From positions 1 through 64,000 of IMG/VR virus record IMGVR_UViG_3300010397_000047: 64,000 nt of DNA. One strand, 5' to 3'. Position 1 is the stretch's first letter. Every line of letters starts with the position of its first letter. This document shows positions 32,858 through 49,565 of the stretch, piece after piece. Source of the stretch: a virus. Under the pieces are notes generated by a model. That model ran no database searches, was not told where the DNA came from, and saw nothing but the letters and a program-made list of their open reading frames with translations. The translations under genes were made by a program, and so were the position numbers.

Positions 32858-34072
32858 TTACCCGATCCCTAGACTAACCGCCTCTCTTCTCTTCCCTACT
32901 AACCCCGCCATAGCCGGTCGTCCTAAACATAACCCCTCGATACGCGGTATCGCTGAGTTGCGTAGATACTCCTCGCTCAAGTCGATCCCTACCCCGAATC
33001 GCCCTAGGTCTAAGGCTACGGCTAGAGCGGTCCCCGATCCGGCGAACGGGTCTAAGACGACCTGCGGCCTTACCCTCTCGCAGATACACCCGCAGGTCTT
33101 CTCCCAGCCCTTCGTTATGACCTCGACTCCAGCGACGGAGTTAGGGCAGCTATTACCTTCGGCCCGCCCCGCCTCGCTCTCCCCCGTCCTCTTCACGTAG
33201 TCATTCGGACGATCCCGCGTTATCGCCAACTTGTCTACGACCCTTCGGTACGGGCTTCCGCATTCAGCGCATTCGCCGTGAGCCGAAGTACCGGCTAAGA
33301 CGCAAGGCTCTACGAGCTTCCGGGGGAACGTCGCGAAGTGCTTACCTGCGTAGCCCTCCTTTGCTATCTTCCATACCGATGGCTTGTTCCGCGTTCCGGT
33401 TGCGTAAGGCTCTACTTTCGTCTCCGCGCCGAACACTCGACCGTTCGTTAAGACTCCGGCCCCCGCTACCTCCCCCCGCTCTAACTCCGTGGCCGATTCC
33501 CTTACGTCCCGGAACGCTGCCTCGTTACTCTCCAGGCTCCTCGTACCTTCCTCCCGAATAGCGTCAGCGTCGTAATACCAGTCCTTCGATTGGCTGAAGA
33601 GGAAGACGTACTCGTGAGCGTTCCGGCAAGGGTTAAAGACGGGAGACGGCATAGGGTCCGGCTTCCACCAGATTATGTCTTGGCGGAGTATCCAGCCGTC
33701 GTCTTGCAAGGCGCGGGCTACCATCCAGGGTACGCCGAGGAGACCGGACCTCCGGCACTTACGCTTCGGCCCGTAGCAGTCCCCTAGGTTAAGCCATAGC
33801 GTACCGTTCCTACGAAGGACTCGGCTTAGGAGCCGGAACACTTCGACTAACCGAGCTACGAACTCCTCTGGCGTATCCTCTTGCCCTAGCTCTAAGGAGC
33901 GGTCTACCCCGTGATAGTCCCTAATGCCCCAGTACGGCGGAGAGGTAACGATAGACTGGACGAAGCCCTCCGGGAGTCTACTAGCTACGGCGCGAACGTC
34001 TCCAGCGAAAAGCCGGGCCGTTGCGCCGTTGTCGTTCGTGCTCCAAAAAGGCTTCAGCGGTATAGTCGGCAT
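32858..34072 (-). CDS. DNA methyltransferase (N6-adenine/N4-cytosine, beta-class order)
   Basis: IVTSPPYWG (motif IV, S/DPPY) lies N-terminal and VLDPFAGSGTA (motif I) C-terminal. A Cys-ribbon insert CAECGSPY is present. Confidence 0.8.
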   Translation of the reverse strand: MPTIPLKPFWSTNDNGATARLFAGDVRAVASRLPEGFVQSIVTSPPYWGIRDYHGVDRSLELGQEDTPEEFVARLVEVFRLLSRVLRRNGTLWLNLGDCYGPKRKCRRSGLLGVPWMVARALQDDGWILRQDIIWWKPDPMPSPVFNPCRNAHEYVFLFSQSKDWYYDADAIREEGTRSLESNEAAFRDVRESATELERGEVAGAGVLTNGRVFGAETKVEPYATGTRNKPSVWKIAKEGYAGKHFATFPRKLVEPCVLAGTSAHGECAECGSPYRRVVDKLAITRDRPNDYVKRTGESEAGRAEGNSCPNSVAGVEVITKGWEKTCGCICERVRPQVVLDPFAGSGTALAVALDLGRFGVGIDLSEEYLRNSAIPRIEGLCLGRPAMAGLVGKRREAVSLGIG

Positions 34073-34160: not shown

Positions 34161-35231
34161 CTAGCTCCGCTTTCGGTTCGCCCTGATCGACTTTAGCTCC
34201 TCCTCCAGTCCCTTTATCCGACCCTCGGAGGCTTTCCGCTCTTCGTCCTTTAGCTCGTCGAGCTTCCTGAAAGCCCGGTCTAGGTCGGAGACCGACTTTG
34301 TTAGCTCGTCCCGCTGACGGATAAGTTCCGCGATTTGCTGCTTACGGGCCGTAATCTCCGTCCACTCCTCCGCAATCTCTTTGAGTTGAGATTTTACCTT
34401 AGCCCGCGCCTTTAAGTCCTTCGCCCACTGTTTCTCGTCCCGAAGCGGAGCTATCTGCGCCTCGATAAGCTCTCGGAACTTCTCTGGCTCTAGCGAGTCT
34501 AGCTCCCACGACTCGTCCCCGAACCGGTTAACGTAGGTCTTGTATCGACTGTCTGTGATCTTCGCCGGGTTAGGAGGGGGGCCGTACTCCTCGATCTGCT
34601 CCATAGTCAGGGCTACCCGGACGAACTCGCAGTCACTCATAAAGGTCTTATGGAGCCGGTCGTAGATATCCCTACTCATATCGATCCCGCTAGGATCGTG
34701 ATCACCGAAGTGAATAATGTAAGGCTTCTGCCCCTTCTCTACGTGACCCTGGAGCCGTAACGAAGCCCTCCACATTTCGGAGAGGGACGTATACCCTCTA
34801 CACACGAAGTAGGGGATGTCGTTCTCCTCGCAGACCCCGGAGATAACGCCGGACAGCGCGTCCTTCTCTACCCAGACTTCGGGCCGGTACTCCTGGTCCT
34901 TCCACATATCGATATGATACCAGGCCGTTAGCTTGTCTAGCGCGTCCTGCGGCCCGGAGTAGTGCTGTAGCTCGGAGAGGCTTCGGGTACGGTCGCAAAG
35001 GTGATTCCAGTCGATCCTCCCGGCTAACCTAGCGGCCCCGATAATGTCTCCTAGCCGCTTGTAGCTCTTCTGCTTGTTCGGTATGTACCCCTTGGCAACG
35101 AAGCGGTAGTAGAGAGAGCGGAGAGTAATCAGGATTCCCTTCTCCGCGTAGCTCTCTAGGATTTCGTTCGCACGGGCTATCGTGTTGGCGTGTCCCTTCG
35201 TAAACCGCTTCGGGACGTAGGTAATCTTCAT
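34161..35231 (-). CDS. Topoisomerase VI subunit A / Spo11-like protein (5Y-CAP + Toprim) with C-terminal coiled coil
   Basis: ITLRSLYYRFV (winged-helix Tyr-Tyr as in R-D-I-Y-Y), EVWVEKDAL (Toprim Glu, compare VVEKDA), CRGYTS (compare GKGYPD) and FGDHDPSGIDM (DxDPxG). Confidence 0.65.
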   Translation of the reverse strand: MKITYVPKRFTKGHANTIARANEILESYAEKGILITLRSLYYRFVAKGYIPNKQKSYKRLGDIIGAARLAGRIDWNHLCDRTRSLSELQHYSGPQDALDKLTAWYHIDMWKDQEYRPEVWVEKDALSGVISGVCEENDIPYFVCRGYTSLSEMWRASLRLQGHVEKGQKPYIIHFGDHDPSGIDMSRDIYDRLHKTFMSDCEFVRVALTMEQIEEYGPPPNPAKITDSRYKTYVNRFGDESWELDSLEPEKFRELIEAQIAPLRDEKQWAKDLKARAKVKSQLKEIAEEWTEITARKQQIAELIRQRDELTKSVSDLDRAFRKLDELKDEERKASEGRIKGLEEELKSIRANRKRS

Positions 35232-37537: not shown

Positions 37538-38266
37538 TTACCCTGGGAGGATAGCCGTAGGGCGACTGTGTTCCTTACAGAAGTGATGGTGCTCCTCCTT
37601 ATCGAAGGCCCGGTTAGAGTCGTGGCAGCTAACCGTAGCGGGCTTACCGCAGACTTCGCAGGACTTACCCTCGTAGGTCTCCTGCGGAGCTTCCGGTGTA
37701 GAGGAGCACTCGTCGTAGACAATCGTCCTGTGCTCTTGCGCCGCTCGGAAGATATCGGACAAGACCGACTTAGAAGCCTGCGGAGGGCCGATGCTAAAAT
37801 GAACCGTGTTCCCGATAGGGCCGAAGGTCAAGTTAGGCCGGGCCTTTAGTTCTTGGTTGTAAGCCACGGTCCTAGGTCGTAAGGCTTCTCGCTCTTCGCC
37901 CCGATCCCGGTTCTGCTCGGCTGCGAGTACGTCCGCGTACTTCTCCGGGTAGCGAACGCGGAGCTTACGGATATTCCCCGCCATAACCTCGGCTAGATCG
38001 AAGCCGAGCGTATTACAAGCCTGAGCGATATACCAGAGCAAATCCCCTAGCTCCTCCTTCACGTTGATCGTATCGAGGGACTGTCCGTAGTAGACGGCCT
38101 TTTGTAGCTGACCGGCTAGCTCCCCGGCTTCGGCGGATATCCCGATGATCGCGTGGTTTAGCCTGGTGAGGTCAATCTGATTACCGCGCGTGAAGAGACG
38201 TTGCGCGGCCTTATCCTGATCGCACTCGGTCCTCGCAACTAGCCGCTGGTAGATGTTAGCTTCCAT
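37538..38266 (-). CDS. mazG: MazG-like nucleoside triphosphate pyrophosphohydrolase with C-terminal Cys/His extension
   Basis: EAGELAGQLQK...KEELGDLLWYIAQ (MazG EExxE/D core) and RVRYPEKY. The C-terminus carries CEVCGKPATVSCHD...HHHFCKEH. Confidence 0.7.
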   Translation of the reverse strand: MEANIYQRLVARTECDQDKAAQRLFTRGNQIDLTRLNHAIIGISAEAGELAGQLQKAVYYGQSLDTINVKEELGDLLWYIAQACNTLGFDLAEVMAGNIRKLRVRYPEKYADVLAAEQNRDRGEEREALRPRTVAYNQELKARPNLTFGPIGNTVHFSIGPPQASKSVLSDIFRAAQEHRTIVYDECSSTPEAPQETYEGKSCEVCGKPATVSCHDSNRAFDKEEHHHFCKEHSRPTAILPG

Positions 38267-38841
38267 TAGTAGTTACGAACCTCCCAAAAGACTGTGTTGA
38301 AGTTAGGAAGAGTCCCCCACCGTCTTTCGTAAGCGGAGAACTCTACCACGTGATCTGGGTAAAGGTCTAGTAGCTCGTTCAGCCAGTCGTAGCTGTTAGA
38401 GCAAAGAGCCTCCCGGAGTAACGAGACCGCTAGTATACCGAAGACGGAAGCCGACTCCCTTGCTAGGGCTATTCGCATAGGCTCCTTAACCCGCGTGTAG
38501 TAGAGATAAAGCCCCCGCTCAGTTCGCATTACCTCCCCTTGGAGTAAGAGGCTTTGCTCGACGAGCGGGGGTATCTGCATAGACGTATACCAGTCTTCGA
38601 TCCTACCTCCAATCGTATTCGGCGCGTTCTTCCAATACATATAAGCCCGAAGGAACGGCTGCTTGTAGTAGGACTTCCCTCCGGCTACCGCCCCGTTACG
38701 CAGGTGAAACAAGGAGCCGTTACGCGGAGCCTCTTCCTTGAACCTCTCCGGGTCTAGCCAAGTCGGAGAGGCGTTACCGAACTCTCCGGCAGCGTACCGC
38801 TTAACGAAGTCTCTCTTCGTCCGTACAGGCTCCCTCGTCAT
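38266..38841 (-). CDS. hypothetical protein embedded in the nucleotide-metabolism module
   Basis: 191-aa ORF, translationally coupled (ATGA-type overlaps) to the ThyA-fold and MazG genes. No domain recognised. Confidence 0.35.
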   Translation of the reverse strand: MTREPVRTKRDFVKRYAAGEFGNASPTWLDPERFKEEAPRNGSLFHLRNGAVAGGKSYYKQPFLRAYMYWKNAPNTIGGRIEDWYTSMQIPPLVEQSLLLQGEVMRTERGLYLYYTRVKEPMRIALARESASVFGILAVSLLREALCSNSYDWLNELLDLYPDHVVEFSAYERRWGTLPNFNTVFWEVRNY

Positions 38842-39917
38842 TTGACTCTCCTCTCAATCCAGTTCGTAGCGGCTATCCGCCAGTCGTCCGACATAATCTT
38901 AGCGCAGACGCGAAGGGCGTTAGCGTACTCCTTCCGCTTGTAGTAATGAAACGCTACGCACATAGGCTGCGCGACGTTCCAAAGGAAGGGTTCGTTATAC
39001 TCCCCTACCATTCCGTCTCGGCTGTGCCGCTCTACGAACTCTTTAACCTCCCGGTCGAAGCGGATCGGGTCTACGACGAGCGGAACGAGCGTAGGGCAAT
39101 GATAAGCCCCGTAGCTCAAATCGTCTTCCTTCAGCCATTCCTCCGGTCGGAACCGCTCCGTGTAGACGTGGAGGTTATTCGTGAACTGGTTGTAGACCCC
39201 CGGTAAGACTCCTAAGCACGCCGCCACGTACTCTTGAAGGAAAGCGAAGTGGACGACGTTAGCCCCTAGCGCGCCCCAGATAAGATCGTTCGAGCGGTTC
39301 GTAACGGTCATATCGAGGACGTTGTAGTACGCTAACGTCGGGCCGGTCTCCTTGTCAGAGAACTTCTCCTCGACCTCCCGGAGAGAGAACATGGCACTAA
39401 GGTTACAGCACACGTCCTTCGACGTATCGACCCGGAGTAGATCGTCTTCGACGTTCCACATAGTCAGGACGGCCCTACGGCTATTCGGGTGAGTCTTGAG
39501 GTGCTTAACGATTACCTCTAGCTGATCCGTATAGTCCGGGGGAGAGACCCGCCAACGATACCCGTAGGCTCCGTTAGCGAACGGGCTATCCCCGTCCTGA
39601 ACCTGGGCAGCGTAGTTCGCCGAGTAGTAAGAGAGCGGCGCGATATCCTGCCGGCCCGCTAGCATCCAGAGGCTCTCGTACAGGTGGAAGAACGGGTTAG
39701 CGTCCCGCGCCCGATTGAACAGTACCTTCTCCTTTGGGTGTGTGTACGTGATCGTGACCGGCGCTTCGATCATTAAGACCTCTCCGACCCGGCTAGGCTT
39801 ACGGACTATCGGGTTGAGGCCCAGAAAGAAACGGTCCTTCATGTCCCTCTGACCGTCGTAGAAGAACTGGACTAGCTCTCGGAAGGCCGTGTTAACATTG
39901 CGGGTTTTTAGGTGCAT
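38838..39917 (-). CDS. thymidylate synthase (ThyA)-fold enzyme, candidate dUMP hydroxymethylase
   Basis: RARDANPFFHLYESLWMLAGRQD (R..N..F...E.lW.L.G), candidate catalytic Cys in DVCCNLSAMF, and NRSNDLIWGALGANVVHFAFL aligning to ThyA [20 protein letters not shown] with Asn retained. Confidence 0.8.
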   Translation of the reverse strand: MHLKTRNVNTAFRELVQFFYDGQRDMKDRFFLGLNPIVRKPSRVGEVLMIEAPVTITYTHPKEKVLFNRARDANPFFHLYESLWMLAGRQDIAPLSYYSANYAAQVQDGDSPFANGAYGYRWRVSPPDYTDQLEVIVKHLKTHPNSRRAVLTMWNVEDDLLRVDTSKDVCCNLSAMFSLREVEEKFSDKETGPTLAYYNVLDMTVTNRSNDLIWGALGANVVHFAFLQEYVAACLGVLPGVYNQFTNNLHVYTERFRPEEWLKEDDLSYGAYHCPTLVPLVVDPIRFDREVKEFVERHSRDGMVGEYNEPFLWNVAQPMCVAFHYYKRKEYANALRVCAKIMSDDWRIAATNWIERRVK

Positions 39918-40491
39918 AGCGTCCTCCGGTTAGAGTGTGGAATTCGAATAGGAATAGGCTCTCGGCTTCTTGCCAGCTGACCGGTCTCCAGTTTAAGTCC
40001 GCGAAGGTTCTCTCCTCGTAGAGAGTAATCGGCTGGTATTTGTCCTGCATCCTCGCGTGAGAGAACTGCTTGGACTCGTAGATACGGGTAGCTACCGCCG
40101 CTTCGTAACGAACGGCTAGCCGGTCTACCCTTTCTACCTCGGCGTGATCGGTCTCTTCGCAGCCGAACTTCCTATAGATAACCTCCTGAACGTGGGCCTC
40201 TATCTCTCGGTAGCGGGCGAACTCCGGGGACTCCTTAATCCACTTGTTCACGTCCCCTAGGTACGCTTCGCTGGCGTCGTGAAGGAGAGCCTGTAGCGCG
40301 TGCTCCCGGTCGGAGAGGAGAGACGCTACGAACGAATGATACGCTACTGATATCGGGAAGAAGGTAGCTCCGACGAATCGGTTGACGATAGCTAGGTGAT
40401 GTGCAATATCCTCGATACAAATAAGCTCCGGCTTCGGGTCGAAGGGATTCACTACCTTCCCAGTAAAGGTCGTCATAATCGGTTCTCGCAT
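39892..40491 (-). CDS. HD-domain phosphohydrolase (YfbR-like 5'-deoxynucleotidase)
   Basis: IAHHLAIVNRF ... LLHDASEAYLGD (H...HD...D). Start re-set to the ATG at 40491 (MREPIM) with GAAGGGG upstream. The track start at 40551 is a TTG lying inside the neighbouring promoter region. Confidence 0.65.
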   Translation of the reverse strand: MREPIMTTFTGKVVNPFDPKPELICIEDIAHHLAIVNRFVGATFFPISVAYHSFVASLLSDREHALQALLHDASEAYLGDVNKWIKESPEFARYREIEAHVQEVIYRKFGCEETDHAEVERVDRLAVRYEAAVATRIYESKQFSHARMQDKYQPITLYEERTFADLNWRPVSWQEAESLFLFEFHTLTGGRYAPKNPQC

Positions 40492-40519
40492 CGTAAACCC
40501 CTTCTCGCCTTGTAGATAC

Positions 40520-40536
40520 GATTTTCTCAGAAAATC
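40520..40536. promoter_or_regulatory. perfect inverted repeat GATTTTC-TCA-GAAAATC upstream of the plus-strand promoter
   Basis: 7-bp arms, 22 bp upstream of the -35 at 40559. GATTTTCTCA recurs at 59553..59562. Confidence 0.45.
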
Positions 40537-40558
40537 AGTAAATTTCCTCAAATTGGGC

Positions 40559-40662: not shown

Positions 40663-40992
40663 ATGACTACCGCTACCGCAACGAAGACCCCGAAGGCTAC
40701 GAAAAAGGCCGGACTCCGCAAGCCCCAGTACCGTATCCTGAAAGCCCTCTCAAAGAAGTCCCCGATGACCCGCTCTGAAATCGCTGGTAAGGCCCCGGTC
40801 GATATCGCTGCTTGCGTCGAGTACATCGGCTCCTCGGACACGGCGGTTCGGAAGGCGAACGACAAGAAGCACTTCCCCTCCCTGATCACCCTCGGTCTCG
40901 TGAAGTTCGCGAACGACGAGGACGCTACCGGAGCCTCCTACGAAATCACGGCGAAGGGCCGCACCGAAGCGAAGAACGCGCCGAAGGAGTAA
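40663..40992 (+). CDS. winged-helix DNA-binding protein with Lys/Thr/Ala-rich N-terminal tail
   Basis: TKTPKATKKAGLRKPQYRILKALSKKSPMTRSEIAGKA (MarR/ArsR-like wHTH start). The only plus-strand gene inside the leftward block, with its own promoter and terminator. Confidence 0.5.
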   Translation: MTTATATKTPKATKKAGLRKPQYRILKALSKKSPMTRSEIAGKAPVDIAACVEYIGSSDTAVRKANDKKHFPSLITLGLVKFANDEDATGASYEITAKGRTEAKNAPKE

Positions 40993-41021: not shown

Positions 41022-41052
41022 ACCCCGGTTAATCGCCGGGGTTTCTTCTTTT
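41022..41052 (+). terminator. rho-independent terminator
   Basis: ACCCCGG-ttaatcg-CCGGGGT followed by TTCTTCTTTT. Overlaps the last codons of the convergent gene 41029..41601. Confidence 0.6.
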
Positions 41053-41601
41053 ATAGAGAGCCGTCGAAGCGGCGTGCTGACGCCGGGAATGCTTAACGTA
41101 GTCGTAGCCTTCGATCTTGAACCCTTTCCAGTAGTCGTCTAGGTCCGCCTTCTCCAGCCCGTAGACCTTATAGTTCATATGCAGCTTTACGCAGGCTACG
41201 TCGGTGAAGACTAGATAGCGGGGCTTAACCGCTTCTACCGCTTCGTCGAGGAGCATCCGGGCTACGACCGTCGTTAGGTTGAAGTCGGCTAGGAGCAGAT
41301 CGACCGGAGGAGCGTTGTAAGGGACCATGAACGGTTCGACTCGGAGTACCGTAGCCTCTCCTCTCCAAGCCGCTACCGCCGTTAGCCGATCCGACTCGTA
41401 TCCGATTAGCGTAGCTCCGGGGAACCTCTTTAGCGCGGCCTCGGCCCAGCTACCTAGTCCGTAGCGGATATCGAGGATCGTCTTCACGTCGGCTACCGGT
41501 ATAGCTTCGATACAATCCCGCATCGCGTTCCGGTTAGCGGCTAGCCCCTTCAACCCGATAAAGCGAGCGGGGGTCTGTTGCGTAGTCTTGTCTTGCTTCA
41601 T
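41029..41601 (-). CDS. putative Rossmann-fold SAM-dependent methyltransferase
   Basis: ILDIRYGLGSWA (motif I-like), ATLIGYESD (acidic end of beta-2) and VDLLLADFN (motif IV-like). Start re-set to the ATG at 41601 (MKQDK), 6 nt after the upstream stop. Confidence 0.4.
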   Translation of the reverse strand: MKQDKTTQQTPARFIGLKGLAANRNAMRDCIEAIPVADVKTILDIRYGLGSWAEAALKRFPGATLIGYESDRLTAVAAWRGEATVLRVEPFMVPYNAPPVDLLLADFNLTTVVARMLLDEAVEAVKPRYLVFTDVACVKLHMNYKVYGLEKADLDDYWKGFKIEGYDYVKHSRRQHAASTALYKRRNPGD

Positions 41602-41606
41602 TGTTG

Positions 41607-42437
41607 TTACCCGATATTCCAGAGGAGCGCTGAGCCGTAGGTCTTCCGGCCTTCCTTCATCCACCATCGAAAGGCTTTCAAGTCGTAGTAAGGATTACAG
41701 GGCCAAGGCGGGGTAGGCCCGTCTTCGGCTACATCCTTGTACTCGTATCCCTCGTCGATTAGGGTTAGCCGGGCTTCGATCCCTGCCGCGTCCGTAATAT
41801 ACTTCCTTATCTCTCCGTGAGACCGCGAATACCCTAGGTGAATGATATAGTTAGGAGCCGTCCCTAGTCCTCGGATTACTCCGGCTGCTATCGTCCCGCT
41901 ACTAATCGGGATAAGGACCGTCTCGAAGCCTCTCTCCCCTAGGGTCGTCTCCTTCGAAGTCTCTACTACGGACTCCGCTAGCTTCAGAGCGTTAGGGATC
42001 ATAACCCCGTTCCGCGCCTCGGTTAGCTTACGAGCTGTATGATAAAGTATAGCCGATCTACCGGCTGGTAACGGGGCTAGCTCCGCCCCTAGCTCCTTCG
42101 CTCTTAGCTGAGGCTCTCTCGGACCCGGCTCGTACTTGAACTCCGGGTAGTAATTAACGCACTGCTTACCGAGTAGTTGGCAGGCCCTAGCTACGGCGTG
42201 ACCGGCTTGAGAATGTCGGGTATCGAGAACCCCGATTAGGTTCTCCGGTCGTTTCTTTACCCAGACGTAGACCCCCCGCGCCTTACTAAACGGAGGGCCG
42301 GGAGGAGGGCAAGATAGGTCTTCCCTCTTCACGTACAACCCGTACTCCGTCCGGTAATCTTGAATAGGAGTACCTTCGCGCAGCATGCCGCCCGCTACGA
42401 TCCTACTTAGGGGTTTCATTCGCTGCGTCCTCCGCAC
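41607..42437 (-). CDS. PLP-dependent fold-type II enzyme (ACC deaminase / D-cysteine desulfhydrase-like)
   Basis: TPIQDY...LYVKREDLS...FSKARG parallels TPl...l.iKRDDl..GGNKxRK (PLP lysine). Later IPISSGTIAAG corresponds to the Gly-rich phosphate loop. Confidence 0.6.
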   Translation of the reverse strand: MRRTQRMKPLSRIVAGGMLREGTPIQDYRTEYGLYVKREDLSCPPPGPPFSKARGVYVWVKKRPENLIGVLDTRHSQAGHAVARACQLLGKQCVNYYPEFKYEPGPREPQLRAKELGAELAPLPAGRSAILYHTARKLTEARNGVMIPNALKLAESVVETSKETTLGERGFETVLIPISSGTIAAGVIRGLGTAPNYIIHLGYSRSHGEIRKYITDAAGIEARLTLIDEGYEYKDVAEDGPTPPWPCNPYYDLKAFRWWMKEGRKTYGSALLWNIG

Positions 42438-42591
42438 AGTCTCGACAAAGCGGTTCGGCCTTGTTTCGGGCTGGGATGTAGTATTCCTTCCGGCACTTCC
42501 CGCAGATTACTAGCCGACTCTTCCTGTAGTTAAAGAACGGAGAAGCCGCTATCTTGTGGTACCTTCCTACCCGTCTACGTCCGTTCACCAC
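42403..42591 (-). CDS. small zinc-ribbon protein
   Basis: 62-aa ORF with CGKCRK...CRDC. Confidence 0.3.
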   Translation of the reverse strand: MVNGRRRVGRYHKIAASPFFNYRKSRLVICGKCRKEYYIPARNKAEPLCRDCAEDAANETPK

Positions 42592-43478
42592 AATCCTCCT
42601 TCCCTTCCTCCTCGGAAGAGCCGCTGAGCTAGCTTCGTCCTACCGAACCGTAGAAGCCCGGAGCGGACGGCCTTAATGTCTTCGCCTAGATGGTAATGGC
42701 CCTTCGTATAAGAGAACCACTTACATAGGATCGTCTCCGCCTCTTGCGGCCCTATTATCCGCTTGAAGTCCGGGGGAGCGCTAAGGGTGCGAAGCTCCGA
42801 GAGGATACGGGCTACAGCCCAGGTAGCCGGACGGGTTTGACCTTCCCTTATTAGCGGGGGCTTCCCTTCCTCTTCCCAGAGCATCTGCGCGCCTTCGGTC
42901 GGAGACCCTTCGTACATTGCGGTCTCTACGTCGAAGTGTATCCGGGCTAACCCTAGCCGCTCTAGCATGTCGGCCACCTTAAAGGCTATCCAGGGGCCGA
43001 AGCCTACCCAAGTCTTCACGTGTTCAACAACGTACTCGGCGGATAGGTCGTGGAACACCGTATCTCCGACCTTAGCCCCGGTTTGTTTTGCGTAGTCGTC
43101 CGATACAAACATTATTGTCGCCGGGGCTAGGCTACGGGCGAACGGACTAAAGAGTTTGCTCAACCCTTGACTCTGTAGGAACTCTACTGACTTCCTAGCG
43201 TTCTCTCCCCGGAAGTGCCGACGTTCAGAGGAGCGCGGGTAGTCCTTCGATCCTGCCGCTGTACGCATCCGATCCCAGTAGGCTAGGTCTTCGGCTTCCG
43301 CTATCCACGAAGCCGTACCGACGTGATAGAACCCCCAGTAGGCTAGGAGCCATCGCTGAAGTAGTTCCGGTTCTAGCTCCGCGTTGTAGAGGACGACGTA
43401 GACCGGGTCAAGGTCTAGGGTCTCTAGTAGCTGCCGTCCGAAGTCATAACAAGATAACAAGGCTTCATCTTCTATCAT
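42585..43478 (-). CDS. HhH-glycosylase-fold protein, candidate second aGPT-Pplase paralogue
   Basis: GFGPWIAFKVADMLERLG resembles the HhH-GPD GIGPWTA motif and aligns with GLGGFMAYEIVCDLRY of 46193..47155. Also carries ERRHFRGENARK. Confidence 0.45.
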   Translation of the reverse strand: MIEDEALLSCYDFGRQLLETLDLDPVYVVLYNAELEPELLQRWLLAYWGFYHVGTASWIAEAEDLAYWDRMRTAAGSKDYPRSSERRHFRGENARKSVEFLQSQGLSKLFSPFARSLAPATIMFVSDDYAKQTGAKVGDTVFHDLSAEYVVEHVKTWVGFGPWIAFKVADMLERLGLARIHFDVETAMYEGSPTEGAQMLWEEEGKPPLIREGQTRPATWAVARILSELRTLSAPPDFKRIIGPQEAETILCKWFSYTKGHYHLGEDIKAVRSGLLRFGRTKLAQRLFRGGREGGLW

Positions 43479-43647
43479 CAGACTCGTACCTATCTAGAGG
43501 TTTTCTAACGATCCTGACACCGCCTCCTGCTCTTCTCTCGTCCCGCAGCAAAGGTCTTTCTTCGTAGAACACTCCAATGGCTCTGAGGTAACGACCGTAG
43601 AACCGCGTGCGGGCTTTCTTGCGCGGCCTTGTATAGTCCTGGATCAT
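43465..43647 (-). CDS. hypothetical small basic protein
   Basis: 60-aa ORF bridging the radical SAM gene and the Pplase-like gene. Confidence 0.2.
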   Translation of the reverse strand: MIQDYTRPRKKARTRFYGRYLRAIGVFYEERPLLRDERRAGGGVRIVRKPLDRYESDDRR

Positions 43648-43648
43648 G

Positions 43649-45130
43649 TTACACCAGCGGTAGTTCGATCTTCCGGCCCTTCGCGGAGCCTACAGGTAGC
43701 TTCAAGTCTGCCGCGCGTACCGCATTAGCCTGCCCCGCTAGCTCGTCTCCGCAACGGGGCTTCCCTTCGCTCCCCGGCGTATCGTTCTCGCTAGCACAGT
43801 GGAGGCAACCAGAAGGCGGGCACTCTTCGACCGGGCGGAAGTTCTCCTTGTCGGAGTCCCGCGTGTAGACCGGGACAGCGTGACCGTGGCATTGGTCGGC
43901 TGTAGTGTACTCCCGCCCTATACTTACCCCAGTCTTCGACGTAATGTTACCGGCTTCGTCCCGTTCGTAGCGGTACTCGTAGCAGGTAGCGTAGGTCAGC
44001 CCGTACCTCTTCGCATAGGTGCTGTAGAGCTTATGCGCCCTTAGTCGGTAGCTTTCCTCTACGCAGCGCTGCCCGCCCTGATTGTCCGTGAATAGCTCCG
44101 CGAACTTCTTGCCTCGATCCCCGAACCGCTTGATCATTCTCTCCGCCATCGTCGGTGCCCAGGAGTACCCGGCTTCTACGAACTTGACGATGACATGATC
44201 CGCTCCAGCGTCCGCTAGGAGTTGGAAGAGGTTGATAATGTCGTCGTGGCTCGTTACGCCGGGGACGATAGGGTTACATTGTATCGAGACGTAGACCCCT
44301 GCGGCCTTTAGCCTTCGGATATCGTCTAGGTGATCGGTTAAAGGTAAGGCTCCGGGGGAGAGGGCTTTCCAATCCTCCTGGTTGCTCGTGTTAATAGACT
44401 TCTGCGCGTAGCTATGTGGGTCGATCCGCAGTAGCTCTACGGCCCAGTCGGGATAGCGAAGCCGGGATAAGAAGAAGATCGGAAGCCCGACCCTTACGAA
44501 CTCCCGCGCCGCTTCTTCCGTGTTGTGGTAGAAGGCTTCGAGGGGGAGGAACGGGTCTGTGAAGGAAGAGAAATACCCGGCTGCTCCCCTACGCATTTTA
44601 TTAAGCTGTGCCCGAATTTGCTCACCGTAAGAGAGAGGTACGGTGATAAGACCGCTTCCTCGGTAGCCCCGGAAACCTGAATTGACATAACAGAAAGCGC
44701 ATCCCACGGCGCACCAGCCTCCGTAAGGCTCTGTAAGCACTGCCTCAGTAAAGCAAGGGCGTGCTCTAGTCCCTTCGGGTTCGTGGAGTCCTTTGTACCA
44801 CCCTTGGAGCGGCTTCGCATTGTCTATCCTCGTATGGGGGTAAGGAGAGAGGTAGGCTACGACCTCCTTCCGGTTCTCTTCCTTCGCGTTGCGGGTCATC
44901 CCTATCCGAACGTCACGGACCTTCGTGCGCCCTAGATACGGGTCGTCGATTTCCCGGATCGGCCCTAGCTCTTCGCGCGGTTCCTTCGACATAAAGTAGT
45001 TATACGTCGTAGCCGCTGTATTGTCGTCGTCTCCGACGTTCTGAACCGTGATCCACGTTTGTTCTTGATCCATAAAGCCCCGCGAAATAAAAGGTAGAGG
45101 AGACGTAGACTCCGTGGCAATAGAGGGCAT
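43649..45130 (-). CDS. radical SAM enzyme (SplB / DNA-photolyase-like context)
   Basis: PYGGWCAVGCAFCYVNSGF contains the CxxxCxxC 4Fe-4S/SAM cluster motif. 493 aa. Confidence 0.8.
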   Translation of the reverse strand: MPSIATESTSPLPFISRGFMDQEQTWITVQNVGDDDNTAATTYNYFMSKEPREELGPIREIDDPYLGRTKVRDVRIGMTRNAKEENRKEVVAYLSPYPHTRIDNAKPLQGWYKGLHEPEGTRARPCFTEAVLTEPYGGWCAVGCAFCYVNSGFRGYRGSGLITVPLSYGEQIRAQLNKMRRGAAGYFSSFTDPFLPLEAFYHNTEEAAREFVRVGLPIFFLSRLRYPDWAVELLRIDPHSYAQKSINTSNQEDWKALSPGALPLTDHLDDIRRLKAAGVYVSIQCNPIVPGVTSHDDIINLFQLLADAGADHVIVKFVEAGYSWAPTMAERMIKRFGDRGKKFAELFTDNQGGQRCVEESYRLRAHKLYSTYAKRYGLTYATCYEYRYERDEAGNITSKTGVSIGREYTTADQCHGHAVPVYTRDSDKENFRPVEECPPSGCLHCASENDTPGSEGKPRCGDELAGQANAVRAADLKLPVGSAKGRKIELPLV

Positions 45131-45224
45131 TGGAGACTAACGAGGCCAAGCCGGATCGGTTAGAATCCTGCCGCTCGGAGGCTTACACGTTAGCGGCTCC
45201 GCCCAGAGCATTGAGCTAGCTCCT

Positions 45225-45779
45225 CTACCTAAGCCAACTGAGGACGATCTTAGGAGCCTGTTCGGGAGAGCATCGCCGGCAGTCTACCCCGGCTTCGAGG
45301 AGCTTCCCCCGCGCCCTCTCTATAGTAGCGACTCGATTGACCGTGTTCCGGGGGTCTAGCTCTTTTTCGTTCCCGGCTTCGGCCCTCCGGCTTTTTATCT
45401 GCGCTAGGCACCGCTCTATCGGGGTCGTAAGGAAGAGGACGCGGAGATTCTTTAGCTGCACGCTCCACTTCGTATCTTCGGAGAGGAGAAGCCCTTCGCA
45501 GATTACGAACCGGGCCTTACACTGGATCGACTCGATAAGCTCGAAGACCTCCCGCGCGGAGCCTATCGTATCGCAGCCCCCGCACGGAGATTCGTAGTGG
45601 CCGAGGACGATTACCCGCGTCTCCGGCTCCTCCCCGTACTCGTAGTAGAGAGGCTGCTTACGCTTCGCCACGTAGACCGGATCGAAGCGGGCGTTAGACC
45701 CGGCTACAAAGCCCTCCATTATCCTTCGGACGGCTGTAGACTTCCCTGAGCCGGACGTACCGCGTAGTTGGATGATCAT
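45225..45779 (-). CDS. P-loop kinase, candidate 5-hmdU DNA kinase
   Basis: Walker A LRGTSGSGKST at the extreme N-terminus and Walker B-like FVICEGLLL. 184 aa, in the same operon as the aGPT-Pplase-like gene. Confidence 0.55.
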   Translation of the reverse strand: MIIQLRGTSGSGKSTAVRRIMEGFVAGSNARFDPVYVAKRKQPLYYEYGEEPETRVIVLGHYESPCGGCDTIGSAREVFELIESIQCKARFVICEGLLLSEDTKWSVQLKNLRVLFLTTPIERCLAQIKSRRAEAGNEKELDPRNTVNRVATIERARGKLLEAGVDCRRCSPEQAPKIVLSWLR

Positions 45780-45991
45780 TAGGAGTACCCTGACCCGTTA
45801 GTGGTATCTGTGATTAGCTCCTCTATCGTCCGCTTCTGGTCCGGGGTAAAGCCGTTAACCTTTCTAAGAACGTCCTTGGCTAGCCCACTGCGAGAGAACG
45901 CCAGAGGCTTATCCTCTAGTAAAGCTATTCTTACGTCTCTCATAGAGAGGAGATTATGAAGGGCCTGGAACTCCTCGAAAGTTAGTTGCAT
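45779..45991 (-). CDS. hypothetical small protein
   Basis: 70-aa ORF with a coupled (ATGA-type) junction to the kinase gene. Confidence 0.25.
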   Translation of the reverse strand: MQLTFEEFQALHNLLSMRDVRIALLEDKPLAFSRSGLAKDVLRKVNGFTPDQKRTIEELITDTTNGSGYS

Positions 45992-45996
45992 AGCCG

Positions 45997-46200
45997 CTAT
46001 CCTCCTAACTTACTCTCTAGTTCTTCGATCTGTTTCTGTAGCTGCCCTATTGCATGCTGGCTCTCTACCCGGAGCCGGGCTAGCTCCGACGAAAGGTTAG
46101 CTACCTCCGCTTTGAGGGCCTGCACCGCCGTGTTCGCGTTATAGGCGTTAGACTTCGCGTTGTTAATAATAGCCCGGTCTTCTGAAGATAGCTTAGACAC
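45997..46200 (-). CDS. small coiled-coil protein
   Basis: 67-aa heptad-rich ORF. Confidence 0.25.
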   Translation of the reverse strand: MSKLSSEDRAIINNAKSNAYNANTAVQALKAEVANLSSELARLRVESQHAIGQLQKQIEELESKLGG

Positions 46201-47155
46201 CGGCGTACCTCCTCTTCATCTTACCGTCCTCCGCTAGCGCCCGCTCGTACTTGTCGTACTCGCATAGGGAGTGCTCTATCTCCCGCATTTCGAAGGGGGG
46301 CATCTTCGGTAGCCGCTGTCGGACGACCTGGAGGAGAGTCTTCATCCGCTCTAGCCAGTCCTTCGGGAGCGGAGGAGACGTTGCGTTATTACCCTTCGGG
46401 AAGTCCTCTCCAGCGATACGAAGGAGACCCCTAGCACATCCAGGGCCGGGGTTACACCAGGTCAGTTTATCCGGCGCGTTCTCTAGGAGGTAAGTATACC
46501 GTAGATCGCAAACAATTTCGTAGGCCATAAAGCCTCCTAGACCGTCGAAGGCCGTAAGCCTTCTGTGTACGGCTTCCATTGAGCAGGAGGCCCCCGGATC
46601 GTTAATCGTCGGGTGCTCTGGCTCTACGTTCTGTAGTAGCTCCTTCCGCGCCTCCCACACGTTCGTAATACGCCGGAGGATAGCCGTTAGCTTAGGCTCC
46701 CCTGCCGGAGAGTTAATCATGTAGGCCCCGGTGAAGATCGGGCTTCGACCCTCTAAGCGGAGCCTAGCTTCCTTCGGGTCCCATTCGACGAGGAGGTTAG
46801 TACGGAAGCCGTCTCGTACCCCGTCTTTCGTCCCCATTAGCACGTCTGCCGTAGCCGGTAGGTTAAACCAACGGAAGGCTACCGTAGCGAAGAGTACGCG
46901 CGGATCGTCTCGAAGAGGCTCCCTGATATGAGTACGAAACCACTGCGTAACCTTATCGTTCTCCCGGTACGGATTCGTGAAGAAGAACTTCTGTAGTACC
47001 TCGTCGTCAGTCCAAGGCTTCGGCTTCCCGGCCCTACGGCGGAGGTAGACCTGGTGCCGCTCTCGTATCCAGTAGAGGAACCTTTCGAGCGGAGAGAGCT
47101 TCTTAACGTCGGCTGTCTTCATTGAGTCACCCCGCTCCCCTTGCAAGGATAGCAA
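46193..47155 (-). CDS. alpha-glutamyl/putrescinyl thymine pyrophosphorylase (aGPT-Pplase) clade-1-like DNA base hypermodification protein
   Basis: ERFLYWIRERHQVYLRRRAGKPKPWTDDEVLQKFFFTNPYRENDKVTQWF matches my recollection of the family signature (RERH.I..+R..G.P.PWT.D.IL..f.F.N.YRE.D+vT.W). The start may instead be the downstream MKTADV. Confidence 0.6.
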   Translation of the reverse strand: MLSLQGERGDSMKTADVKKLSPLERFLYWIRERHQVYLRRRAGKPKPWTDDEVLQKFFFTNPYRENDKVTQWFRTHIREPLRDDPRVLFATVAFRWFNLPATADVLMGTKDGVRDGFRTNLLVEWDPKEARLRLEGRSPIFTGAYMINSPAGEPKLTAILRRITNVWEARKELLQNVEPEHPTINDPGASCSMEAVHRRLTAFDGLGGFMAYEIVCDLRYTYLLENAPDKLTWCNPGPGCARGLLRIAGEDFPKGNNATSPPLPKDWLERMKTLLQVVRQRLPKMPPFEMREIEHSLCEYDKYERALAEDGKMKRRYAGV

Positions 47156-47526
47156 GTATCGTCGTTCGAATTACGCCCGCTCCCTAGACAGGCCTTGCAG
47201 CGGAAGTTCGTCCGTATCCAGTCCTCTACTTCGTTGACGACCTTAATATACTCTCGCGAGGGGGACATAGAGACCTCCTGCCCGATAGAGTAGGCTTCCC
47301 AGACCTTATCCCGTAGCTCCCTCGGTAGCCGCATCCAATGGCTGTAGCAGCCCCACATAGCCGGAGGTACGGTCTTAGTACAGCCGGGATAATGACAATG
47401 ATGATCCCTCGTCTGTCCTTGGCCCTTAACGTAGGCTACCTTCTCCTCCTTCGTAACGACGGGGGCCGGAGTATTCTTACGAAGAGGTTTTGGCGGAGTC
47501 TTCATAACGTCATTCCCTCCCCCCAA
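47119..47526 (-). CDS. zinc-binding protein with DnaJ-type CxxCxGxG repeat
   Basis: HHCHYPGCTK...WGCYSHW and C-terminal CKACLGSG...CYPCKGSG. Confidence 0.35.
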   Translation of the reverse strand: MGGGNDVMKTPPKPLRKNTPAPVVTKEEKVAYVKGQGQTRDHHCHYPGCTKTVPPAMWGCYSHWMRLPRELRDKVWEAYSIGQEVSMSPSREYIKVVNEVEDWIRTNFRCKACLGSGRNSNDDTCYPCKGSGVTQ

Positions 47527-49565
47527 TTGTTAGCGTGGTATTCGATTCCGACCGGCGTAGGTATCCCGAAGTCGGCTCCCCCTAGCTCCATTGTCTTCGC
47601 TATCTCCTTAATCCGACCTAAGTTGGTCATCCAAGGCCGGAGACCCCTACCGCGCGGGAAGTCGAATACCATTTCGTCGTGTACCTGGAGCGTAATGTAG
47701 TAGCCGCGCGGGTCTTTCCTAGTCCACTCCTCTAGGATCGGGGCGCAGCGTATCATGGCCTTCATCGTCCACCACATCGCCGATCCTTGGATATGATAGT
47801 TAAGCGGTACGGTCGGAAGGATATCTCCCCACTCGGAGCGGGTGCATAGGAGCGGATAGCCGCGCTCCGGGTCTACCGTCCGGTCGGGGATCGTCTCTAC
47901 ATATCCGTACTGCTTCGCGAAGCGTATCCATTTTTGGTTCAGGGCTTCCTTCTTCTCGAACCTAGCTAGGAGCTTGGCGTGAGACCCCGGACGACCGAAA
48001 GCCCGGTCAGCCGTCCCCTTACCGTCCGCTCGGTTCACGGCCCCGTATCCTACCGCGAAGTCTCCGTTCTTACATCGTTGATACCAAGACGCAGCGTACT
48101 TCTTCTTACAGTAAGGCCCGGCCTTATCTAGCCCGACCTCCTTAACCGCCGCTGCCCATAGGTCTTCGTAGACGATAGAGAAGTTGAGTATATGTTCCGA
48201 CCCGTAGTAAGGAGGGTCTTTCTCCCGCTCAAACAGGTCTATCAGGTCTTTCTCCCCGCACTCGTAAGCGGGTAGTCGTAGTTCAATGTTCTTCGCGTCT
48301 ATGCTCCACCACTCCCTATCCGGCCCTGGTCCAAAGGCTTCCCGTAGATTCGTCTCCTCCTTCTTACTGACCTGCTGCCCGTTCGGATTGTAGCTGGCGA
48401 AGCGGAGCGTATCAGTGCCGGTAGGGTTAAGCGCCGGATAGATTCGGAACGTGTCGGGGTCGTTCGTAGGGAGCATGAACTTGTCGTAGCTCGCTAGGAA
48501 GCCTAGGGCCGTTCCTTTACCCCTCCAGCGAACTAGATTCTGGATAAACGAGAGCGGCTTACTGTGCGGCTCTAACGTCGCTAGGTAGTGCGGGATAGCT
48601 ACCTTGCTATCGAGACTAGGGTTGGTCGTCTTCGCCTTCGGGTTAGGGATCGGCTCTAGCTTCATAACCTCGAAGCAGAACTGCCTTAGCGAATTGTTAA
48701 CCGCCCCCTTCGGTAGCTTTAGATCGAAGCCGTAGGAGGAGGCTAGGTTAACGCACTTCCGGGCACAGGACTCTTGATCCTCCCTATAGCTGACCTCTAA
48801 CCGGTTCTTCCTAGCCCGGCTCCCCGTCAGCCCGCAGTTCTCGATAGAGTGCACTACCGGGAGGACTTTTAGCCGCTCCCGGTAGATGTTCCAGAGCTTC
48901 CTTCGCTCTATTTCTATCTTCATCTTCTTCCACAGCGCGAGCGTTACCGCGCTATCTGCGTTAGCGTACTCGCGGAGGACCGTGTACCAAGGGTGATCGG
49001 GGGGATACCCCTGCTTGAGGGCTAGGGTTCTCGGCAACCAGGAGTCGTTCTTCCATGGCTTCTCCTCGTCTCGTTGTGAGCCCCCTTTAACCGAGGGCAT
49101 AGTTGCTAGCCCTTCCTCCGCTAGCTTCCAATCCGGGAAGGTCTTCTTTACTAGCTTCCGGGCCTCCGTACAAGCCTCCTTTAGCCTCTCTTCGTAGGGC
49201 GCGATGTCTACGCCTAGGTAGACGAGAGCCATTGAAGTAAGATCGTGAGGCTGATTCGACGCGAGAAGGTGCCCGGCTAGGAGCGTATCGTAGGTCCGGC
49301 TCCAATCCCACGGGGTCTTACGGTGCCACACCGTCTCTAGCGCCTTAACGTCGAACTTCGCATTTTGTAGTACGACCTCCTCCGCGTCTACCCGAACGCT
49401 AATCTCGAACAAGTCCCCCTTCGGTATATTCGGTTCCCGCGTTAACGGGTCTACGTCCCATTCCCAGTAAAGCTGATCCCCGTTCTCTTCGCAGATAGTC
49501 ACGAAGAACGGCTTAGCCCCGTGCTTTAGGTCTACTCCGGTCGTTTCGGTATCTAGGGAGATCAT
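47502..49565 (-). CDS. family A DNA polymerase with 3'-5' exonuclease domain
   Basis: ExoI ISLDTETTG. Motif A SIDAKNIELR, motif B RCKNGDFAVGYG and motif C LQVHDEMVF. Confidence 0.9.
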   Translation of the reverse strand: MISLDTETTGVDLKHGAKPFFVTICEENGDQLYWEWDVDPLTREPNIPKGDLFEISVRVDAEEVVLQNAKFDVKALETVWHRKTPWDWSRTYDTLLAGHLLASNQPHDLTSMALVYLGVDIAPYEERLKEACTEARKLVKKTFPDWKLAEEGLATMPSVKGGSQRDEEKPWKNDSWLPRTLALKQGYPPDHPWYTVLREYANADSAVTLALWKKMKIEIERRKLWNIYRERLKVLPVVHSIENCGLTGSRARKNRLEVSYREDQESCARKCVNLASSYGFDLKLPKGAVNNSLRQFCFEVMKLEPIPNPKAKTTNPSLDSKVAIPHYLATLEPHSKPLSFIQNLVRWRGKGTALGFLASYDKFMLPTNDPDTFRIYPALNPTGTDTLRFASYNPNGQQVSKKEETNLREAFGPGPDREWWSIDAKNIELRLPAYECGEKDLIDLFEREKDPPYYGSEHILNFSIVYEDLWAAAVKEVGLDKAGPYCKKKYAASWYQRCKNGDFAVGYGAVNRADGKGTADRAFGRPGSHAKLLARFEKKEALNQKWIRFAKQYGYVETIPDRTVDPERGYPLLCTRSEWGDILPTVPLNYHIQGSAMWWTMKAMIRCAPILEEWTRKDPRGYYITLQVHDEMVFDFPRGRGLRPWMTNLGRIKEIAKTMELGGADFGIPTPVGIEYHANNWGEGMTL

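Follow-up and report, generated by a model that had tools for sequence, protein, structure and literature searches.

What thymidine modification would be made by the six enzyme genes at positions 41029-47155 of the viral record IMGVR_UViG_3300010397_000047 (IMG/VR), and does the last of them, a methyltransferase gene, take part in it? The whole stretch of DNA analysed, positions 1 to 64,000 of that record, is referred to here as the window. The region is read as a thymidine hypermodification cassette of the type known from Pseudomonas phage M6 with an optional methylation step added to it, and a probability of about 0.7 is assigned to this reading. The initial annotation had described six co-oriented enzyme genes next to a DNA polymerase gene; the list of open reading frames (ORFs) confirmed all six on the minus strand at the same coordinates, and every motif quoted for them is present in the translations. 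The gene directly upstream of the cluster (47502-49565, minus strand) encodes a family-A DNA polymerase (PolA) with a 3'-5' exonuclease domain (PF00476, E = 4.5e-23; PF01612, E = 4.3e-07), and PolA holds the same position relative to the cluster in the related loci L003, L004, L006, and L021. The enzyme classes were also recognised correctly (two aGPT-Pplase-type proteins, a kinase, a radical S-adenosylmethionine (SAM) enzyme, a fold-type II pyridoxal 5'-phosphate (PLP) enzyme, and a protein with a methyltransferase fold), and homology to M6 supported their placement in a post-replicative hypermodification cluster based on 5-hydroxymethyl-deoxyuridine (5-hmdU).

Five of the six genes were found to be one-to-one homologues of M6 gp51-gp55. 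The radical SAM (rSAM) enzyme (43649-45130; phrog_9252, E = 2.7e-187), used as a tblastn query against cultured phages, retrieved 72 records, mainly of Pseudomonas Yuavirus (M6 and YuA-like phages) and Bordetella Vojvodinavirus, with identities of 58-59%; the identity to M6 gp53 was 59% over 450 aa. By tblastn, the PLP enzyme (41607-42437; PF00291, E = 4.6e-09; phrog_7093, E = 8e-64) shared 48% identity with gp52, the clade-1 aGPT-Pplase (46193-47155) 36% with gp55, the clade-2 aGPT-Pplase or amino-acid:DNA transferase (AADT; 42585-43478) 33% with gp51, and the P-loop 5-hmdU DNA kinase (45225-45779) 26% with gp54, while a thymidylate synthase (TS) homologue located 1.1 kb downstream of the cluster (38838-39917, minus strand) was 38% identical to gp58. 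Both Pplase-like proteins were placed by Pfam, the first in PF18723 (HMUDK_hel, formerly aGPT-Pplase clade 1; E = 9.7e-48, 163.4 bits at a cut-off of 25, 274 of 281 model positions covered) and the second in PF18724 (ADDT, formerly clade 2; E = 4.5e-14), as had been proposed. The EIEHSLCEYDKYER motif is kept between the clade-1 protein and M6 gp55, and the same protein retains a Glu-x3-Cys motif resembling the catalytic motif of clade 2. The idea that the two are paralogues was drawn initially from a helix-hairpin-helix (HhH) motif. Pfam assigned the second protein to clade 2, and a local match of 28 columns at the HhH motif was recovered in the profile-profile comparison of the two clades; this match was weak (probability 7.5%, E = 0.0047, from shallow alignments), and paralogy rests on the Pfam/Iyer classification and the common Glu-x3-Cys motif.

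The residues expected for the M6 activities are conserved. The kinase matched PF18748 under the Pfam cut-off (E = 0.0036), as did, weakly, all 6 members of its subgroup, and its other matches were generic P-loop ones; aligned with the M6 gp54 group using hhalign, it matched over its full length (probability 99.9%, E = 7.1e-37), and the Walker A motif (GTSGSGKST) is conserved. The CX3CX2C motif of the rSAM enzyme (CAVGCAFC) and its C-terminal cysteines (TCYEY, DQCHG, CPPSGCLHC, and PRCG), which are thought to hold a second cluster, are invariant in the rSAM alignment A6. The PLP enzyme scored 36.5 bits with the PALP model (cut-off 35), matched a NCBIfam Ser/Thr dehydratase model weakly (E = 0.0047), and gave no match in the PDB sequence search at E <= 0.01; among characterised proteins it is closest to the M6 gp52 decarboxylase, whose Schiff-base lysine K36 aligns with the lysine of FSKARG. 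The label of an ACC deaminase/D-cysteine desulfhydrase was rejected for this enzyme, as the general PALP model was matched and not that subfamily. No matches were obtained in PDB sequence searches with the profiles of the rSAM enzyme and the clade-1 Pplase. An NCBIfam scan of the cluster proteins gave weak generic matches, and a PADLOC scan of five of them gave none.

The AADT matched solved amino-acid:DNA transferase structures, namely 25qc (E = 4.9e-40) and the glycinyltransferase 8z2m (E = 2.5e-35). In the structure of YuA Pplase2 (97% identical to M6 gp51) with DNA and glycine, the catalytic Cys and the metal ligands have been defined, together with a glycine pocket consisting of D24, E96, K159, K248, Y257, and D262; within this pocket, the positions of K and Y are sufficient for switching the donor between a diamine and glycine (PMC13458397, published in 2026). 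Alignment with the YuA and M6 proteins showed that the window AADT keeps the catalytic Cys252, the metal ligands E248/T249, and all six glycine-pocket residues (D24, E85, K167, K253, Y262, and D267). These functional residues were invariant, D24 nearly so, in ten homologues drawn from both methyltransferase-carrying and methyltransferase-free clusters. Since the catalytic, metal, and pocket residues are conserved, glycine is predicted as the donor and the AADT as a glycine:DNA transferase.

The M6 pathway was reconstituted in the order gp54, gp51, gp53, and gp52: the gp54 kinase forms 5-phosphomethyl-dU, gp51 with glycine forms N-alpha-glycinylthymidine (N-alpha-GlyT), the rSAM enzyme gp53 converts it to C-alpha-GlyT, and the PLP enzyme gp52 decarboxylates the latter to 5-(2-aminoethyl)-dU (5-NedU), gp55 not being required in vitro (PMC8989533). 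The initial annotation held that the set could be mapped to no characterised product; because five of its genes are homologous to the reconstituted M6 enzymes gp51-gp55, it does map onto one, the known 5-NedU pathway, and an M6-type core pathway is very probably present in the window. M6 and the window have six families in common (the kinase, the clade-2 Pplase, rSAM, PLP, the clade-1 Pplase, and a TS homologue as the candidate hydroxymethylase), with an HD nucleotidase near and PolA in the neighbourhood. They differ in gene order (AADT-PLP-rSAM-kinase-clade-1 Pplase in M6 versus clade-1 Pplase-kinase-rSAM-AADT-PLP-methyltransferase in the window), in an unrelated phage backbone (PolA 22% identical), and in MazG, which the window has and which was not seen in the 19.3-kb M6 stretch examined. 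They also differ in the extra 190-aa methyltransferase, encoded directly after the PLP enzyme; a hidden Markov model (HMM) of it detected no homologue in either M6 or FP1. The cluster is M6-type in five of six defining features, and the remaining one, that no further tailoring enzyme occurs, does not apply to it. Contigs from metagenomes were described as "identical or nearly identical" to M6 by Lee et al. (2021), who also mentioned co-associated enzyme families without addressing them (PMC8989533). The novelty claimed for the cluster as a whole was narrowed: most of the set is already characterised in M6, and the new element is the sixth gene, a methyltransferase specifically linked to the pathway and without an M6 counterpart.

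The methyltransferase gene (41029-41601, minus strand) begins with an ATG 5 nt past the stop codon of the PLP gene. Its start differs between annotations, the ENA record giving 212 aa from an ATG at 41667, with an overlap of 61 nt into the PLP gene, and JGI giving 190 aa from 41601; all homologues start where the shorter form does. The 190-aa product is identical to the JGI-predicted protein and has 27 metagenomic homologues. Invariant in the family alignment A1 are D44-x-R-Y-G48-x-G50-x-W (motif I), G67-x-E69 at the end of the second strand, DLLLADFN108 with D-F-N after the fourth strand, FTDV, and H141-x-N143. Among the 27 family members, 12 matched Pfam FtsJ weakly, and others matched Methyltransf_25, _5, or _23. 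An AlphaFold2 model built from the alignment (pLDDT 90.6, pTM 0.87) has alternating strands and helices, and a Foldseek search of PDB with it gave 849 matches at E <= 1e-3; all 50 of the 50 matches listed were SAM methyltransferases, with small-molecule O- and N-methyltransferases at the top and in the majority. The fold search in BFVD returned unnamed phage "AdoMet_MTases". Searches of PDB sequences with the single sequence and the profile gave non-significant methyltransferase matches (best E 0.018-0.038). On the strength of the modelled fold and the family alignment, the product is assigned as a predicted class I SAM methyltransferase. A DNA base methyltransferase was considered and rejected, as the invariant D-F-N replaces the (D/N/S)PP(Y/F/W) or PC motif IV and a target-recognition domain is lacking, and no family member matched PF01555 or the C5-methyltransferase models; without the (D/N/S)PP(Y/F) motif and such a domain, the protein is not a conventional enzyme of this class.

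The distribution of the family argues for a link to the pathway. An HMM search of 1.84 billion representatives found 180 clusters at E <= 1e-3, 39 of them at E <= 1e-30, and none turned up when 185,579 species genomes were scanned at pattern level. Neither the window methyltransferase nor the distant member P0094 had a tblastn match in cultured phages, of which Pam3 alone was reached, with the query P0063. Fourteen contexts were retrieved via the methyltransferase itself (L003, L004, L006, L008-L011, L016-L018, L019-L021, and Pam3 gp39), including distant members at E = 5e-22, 5e-17, and 4e-11, and all 14 proved to be clusters with PLP, AADT, and kinase genes and, where the contig reaches, rSAM. 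At least six gene orders were observed, and the methyltransferase gene adjoins the PLP or rSAM gene everywhere but in Pam3. With Pp1, KIN, and MT denoting the genes of the clade-1 Pplase, kinase, and methyltransferase, the order Pp1-KIN-rSAM-AADT-PLP-MT occurs in the window and most other loci, rSAM-MT-HNH-AADT-PLP in L006, AADT-PLP-MT-rSAM-KIN-Pp1 on an M6-like backbone in L016 and L045, AADT-PLP-rSAM-MT-KIN-Pp1 in L019 and L089, PLP-MT-rSAM-AADT-KIN-Pp1 in L074, and MT-PLP-KIN-rSAM in L017. The PLP and methyltransferase genes overlap in L004 and L016. From this distribution, the methyltransferase is probably tied functionally to the pathway. In L021 (7312-8723), the PLP gene is followed by two methyltransferase genes, the first of Methyltransf_11/12/25 type (235 aa) and the second a distant member of the present family (240 aa); the presence of the unrelated enzyme is compatible with stepwise methylation. 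The rSAM gene of L018 (1718-4111) encodes 797 aa in place of the usual ~480, probably owing to an insertion.

In a reverse survey, 80 IMG/VR loci were collected with the rSAM profile. The rSAM, AADT, PLP, and kinase genes occurred together in 55 of them, and the methyltransferase was present in 9 of these 55 (16%); among loci flanked on both sides, it was found in 6 of 38. A PLP gene accompanied the methyltransferase in every locus examined. In the neighbour-joining rSAM tree, methyltransferase-carrying loci are intermixed with loci that lack the gene, and it is missing from the M6/Yuavirus crown group. Relatives without it have rSAM proteins 70-74% and PLP proteins 60-67% identical to those of the window; L014 and L015, for example (70-71% and 60-67%, respectively), are no more distant than the methyltransferase-carrying relatives. 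Given these identities, the presence or absence of the methyltransferase most likely makes no difference to the substrates of the core enzymes. The picture is one of an optional module that was gained or lost repeatedly and leaves the work of the core enzymes unchanged. A different set was observed in the close relative L013 (11173-12947; the same contig as L026), where rSAM, 74% identical to that of the window, and AADT genes are followed by a DAO-type flavin adenine dinucleotide (FAD) oxidoreductase (PF01266) and an aldo/keto reductase (PF00248), with neither PLP enzyme nor methyltransferase; this is another uncharacterised combination.

The cultured freshwater cyanophage Pam3 of Pseudanabaena (ON014755.1; L022, 30603-41235) carries a full hypermodification set of the rSAM/PLP type, gp39-gp52. 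It shares the PLP, rSAM, Pplase2, kinase, Pplase1, and TS genes with the window, and its gp39 belongs, though distantly, to the window methyltransferase family (HMM E = 1.1e-13). Unlike the window gene, gp39 lies 2.4 kb upstream of the PLP gene, and its product is strongly diverged, with DYN in place of DFN. No study of Pam3 DNA modification was found in the searchable literature.

The core chemistry proposed for the window is derived from homology to the reconstituted enzymes, and the role of the methyltransferase from its association with them and from chemistry. The TS-like enzyme together with the HD and MazG proteins would bias the nucleotide pool, and 5-hmdU would be incorporated instead of T. 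After replication, the P-loop kinase would phosphorylate 5-hmdU in DNA, the AADT would displace the phosphate with glycine to give N-alpha-glycinylthymidine, the rSAM enzyme would isomerise this to C-alpha-glycinylthymidine, and the PLP enzyme would decarboxylate it to 5-NedU. The methyltransferase would act last and methylate, one or several times, the primary amine of 5-NedU exposed by decarboxylation. The last position is proposed because the PLP enzyme requires both the primary amine and the carboxylate in free form, because divergence among the core enzymes does not track whether the methyltransferase is present, and because the gene of the latter most often follows that of the PLP enzyme. 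For a methylated thymidine derivative of some kind in virion DNA the odds are judged even; that it would specifically be N-methylated 5-NedU, an assignment by analogy, is put forward tentatively, at somewhat less than even odds. No description of methylated 5-NedU or of this methyltransferase family was found in the literature, as far as the incomplete searchable library goes.

Methylation at such a position has a parallel in tRNA, where nm5U is methylated to mnm5U by small class I SAM methyltransferases (MnmC2/MnmM) acting on the uracil C5 side chain. CmoM and Trm9 methyl-esterify side chains of tRNA U34. The U34 enzymes (CmoM, TrmR, and MnmC2/MnmM) and the window protein would have in common a small class I SAM fold and a uracil C5 side chain as the target; however, no specific sequence relationship between them was found, and in the window the enzyme would act on duplex DNA. 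The likeness is one of analogy and does not establish family membership. The parallel between cmnm5U/MnmC and the DNA pathways was already drawn by Lee et al. A closer comparison is offered by phage PaMx11, which makes 5-acetylaminomethyl-dU through the glycine transferase gp46, the flavin lyase gp47, and the acetyltransferase gp48 (PMC8989533, PMC11472151). Both systems have a kinase and glycine-transferase front end, the structure 8z2m matched by the window AADT being that of PaMx11 gp46. In PaMx11 the primary amine of 5-NmdU is capped by the acetyltransferase, and a parallel role is proposed for the window methyltransferase. The two differ in that the window has rSAM and PLP enzymes in place of the flavin lyase and a methyltransferase in place of the acetyltransferase.

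Several observations weigh against a cassette with a methylation step. All functional assignments made here rest on homology or association. The window methyltransferase itself had no significant Pfam, PHROG, or NCBIfam match, and its closest solved structures are generic class I methyltransferases (TM 0.5-0.6), so that the substrate atom is not readable from homology. The Pam3 family member is separated from the PLP gene by the distance given above, and the window also encodes a conventional N6/N4 DNA methyltransferase, methylation thus not being unique to the cluster. The hydroxymethylase activity of the TS homologue is assumed, and the clade-1 Pplase could contribute further chemistry.

One alternative is that the phage is a plain 5-NedU producer whose methyltransferase has another target (host or phage RNA, protein, small molecules, or a base in DNA) and is encoded in the DNA-metabolism module for expression timing only. 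In M6 the five core genes are enough for making 5-NedU, 84% of the sampled clusters do without the methyltransferase, the weak Pfam matches of family members are to FtsJ-type RNA methyltransferases, and in Pam3 the gene adjoins neither PLP nor rSAM. If the methyltransferase were irrelevant, the region would be another metagenomic M6-like 5-NedU cluster, of the kind already noted by Lee et al. (2021). However, an unrelated target does not readily explain why 14 of 14 family members occur in one cluster type despite the variety of gene orders and polymerases only ~22% identical, or why the family was found nowhere else in the representatives and genomes searched; for a DNA base as the target, the DFN in place of motif IV and the missing target-recognition domain stand against it as well. 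This alternative is considered unlikely. Still less probable is that the methyltransferase acts earlier, esterifying the carboxylate of glycinyl-thymidine or methylating the secondary amine in N-alpha-GlyT, part of the flux being diverted to a second product. The side-chain methyltransferases CmoM (8k5l) and TrmR (5zw3) were among the Foldseek matches, and in several loci the gene is flanked by PLP and rSAM or by rSAM and AADT; yet these matches did not surpass those to dozens of other class I enzymes, and the PLP decarboxylase, which requires both the primary amine and the carboxylate in free form (PMC8989533), would be blocked by an intermediate that is esterified or N-methylated, whereas a PLP gene nevertheless accompanies the methyltransferase in every locus examined.

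The initial annotation had favoured an unmapped pathway, in which the two Pplases, seen as unusual, would install two adducts, or the PLP enzyme as a lyase or deaminase would yield a sulfur- or amino-acid-derived one. The Glu-x3-Cys motif kept by the clade-1 Pplase is like the catalytic one of clade 2, and combinatorial diversity is real in related contigs, as in the rSAM, AADT, FAD, and aldo-keto reductase set of L013. Both Pplase clades are, however, the norm in characterised phages, one of each occurring in M6, ViI, and phiW-14, while in SP10 a Pplase domain is fused to the kinase (PMC5889632, Table 3); a clade-1 Pplase is present in all hypermodifying phages known, and the M6 one is dispensable in vitro. 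The one-to-one match to M6 gp51-gp55, with active sites and glycine pocket conserved, speaks against an unmapped pathway; the PLP enzyme, 48% identical to a proven decarboxylase and with its Schiff-base lysine conserved, is a homologue of gp52 and not of the lyase type proposed; and nothing supported a sulfur-derived adduct, no sulfur-handling enzyme being among the family-library matches of the cluster proteins. Such a pathway is regarded as highly improbable, and the M6-type cassette with an optional, final methylation step is preferred.

Genes for the supply of 5-hmdU lie downstream of the cluster. The TS homologue (PF00303, E = 1.5e-18; phrog_5131, E = 2e-81) is a candidate dUMP hydroxymethylase. 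Its counterparts in L003 (11704-13716) and L004 (11795-13837) are split by an intein plus HNH domains. An HD-domain 5'-deoxynucleotidase-like protein (39892-40551, minus strand; phrog_318, E = 9.3e-40, and a weak match to the YfbR-like family PF12917) takes the position occupied by gp59 in M6 and gp17 in FP1, and a MazG-like nucleotide pyrophosphohydrolase (37538-38266, minus strand; PF03819, E = 7.5e-10; phrog_229, E = 6.9e-37) is a candidate for dTTP/dUTP clearance. Between MazG and the TS homologue, a 191-aa protein is encoded (38266-38841, minus strand) which had no match in Pfam, PHROG, NCBIfam, PADLOC, or PDB and no detectable similarity to M6 gp56, which has a comparable slot; its homologues adjoin TS in L008, L009, L010, L013, L015, and L018. 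On the plus strand, convergent with the cluster, lies the gene of a 109-aa protein with a Lys-rich N-terminus (40663-40992); no significant family match was found for it, but tblastn revealed homologues similarly placed and oriented in L003, L004, L008-L011, and L014, whether or not the locus carries the methyltransferase, and it could be a DNA-binding or regulatory protein. A GC-rich hairpin with a T-run (41022-41042), terminator-like by a consensus scan, sits between this ORF and the converging methyltransferase gene.

Small ORFs are interspersed in the cluster on the minus strand, as initially reported, including a Zn-ribbon ORF of 62 aa (42403-42591, CxxC...CxxC; the ENA record calls a gene of 61 aa at this place) and a 67-aa coiled coil (45997-46200), but they are not conserved in relatives. 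By tblastn, these two, a 70-aa ORF (45779-45991), and a 60-aa ORF between the rSAM and AADT genes (43465-43647) had no match in any related locus. A homologue of the Cys-rich (CxxC) 135-aa protein encoded at 47119-47526 on the same strand (weak DnaJ CXXCXGXG match, E = 0.0019) was seen among the related loci in L006 only, and this protein is probably outside the pathway.

The window derives from a metagenomic contig of 66.9 kb. Outside the regions described, it has the genes of a tailed phage, among them those for terminase, portal, head morphogenesis, and primase, and a megablast of the 37.5-49.6 kb region against 50,697 phage records gave no matches. The conventional N6/N4 DNA methyltransferase is encoded at 32858-34072 (minus strand; PF01555, E = 1.9e-35; phrog_67), and its homologues in L004 and L009 gave matches broken into two or three pieces. 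The adjacent region, 34161-35231 (minus strand), encodes a phrog_6247 protein annotated as "DNA topoisomerase", with a C-terminal coiled coil and Spo11/TopoVI-A-like motifs (LRSLYY, EVWVEKD, and GDHDPSG). No Pfam or PDB sequence matches were found for this protein; it is 48% identical to Pam3 gp41, which is encoded inside the hypermodification cluster of that phage (L022, 10537-11433), and 42% identical to the product of an L015 ORF (5543-6496) between PolA and the clade-1 Pplase.

The frequent CTAG-containing sites had been offered as a possible footprint of the modification. In the window, CTAG occurs 411 times against 237 expected by base composition, with a ratio of 0.97 to the maximal-order Markov expectation. 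GCTAGC was indeed about twofold over dinucleotide-preserving shuffles (61 versus 30.6 +/- 5.1), but CCTAGG was at expectation (38 versus 37.2), and both were at ~0.9 of the maximal-order Markov expectation. Since the counts are largely explained by lower-order composition, CTAG gives no usable support for a modification, and its enrichment was rejected as a footprint. Many other 6-bp palindromes were strongly avoided in the whole window, as seen from observed and maximal-order Markov counts: CCCGGG (0/57), CGATCG (0/43), TCCGGA (0/34.5), CGGCCG (1/34), GGGCCC (4/34), GTCGAC (0/31), CCGCGG (0/29), and GACGTC (3/28), while GCTAGC (61), GATATC (40), and CCTAGG (38) were tolerated. CATG and TGCA were ~fourfold under the base-composition expectation. 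This avoidance fits a phage under restriction pressure.

Thymidine hypermodifications shield phage DNA from restriction enzymes and other nucleases, and the tailoring steps known so far comprise isomerisation, decarboxylation, flavin-dependent lysis, and acetylation. With a SAM methyltransferase dedicated to the rSAM/PLP branch, methylation would join these steps, and the 190-aa protein would found a new methyltransferase family acting on a hypermodified DNA side chain and not on a canonical base. The two methyltransferases of L021 would then point to stepwise multiple methylation. It is possible, although rather less than an even bet, that an undescribed thymine, 5-NedU with a mono-, di-, or trimethylated amine, is made by the window phage, by about one in six virome clusters of the rSAM/PLP type, and possibly by Pam3. 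Such a compound would add to the natural DNA bases a new one, changed in charge, bulk, and reactivity, and its secondary, tertiary, or quaternary amine would withstand amine-directed chemistry or recognition.

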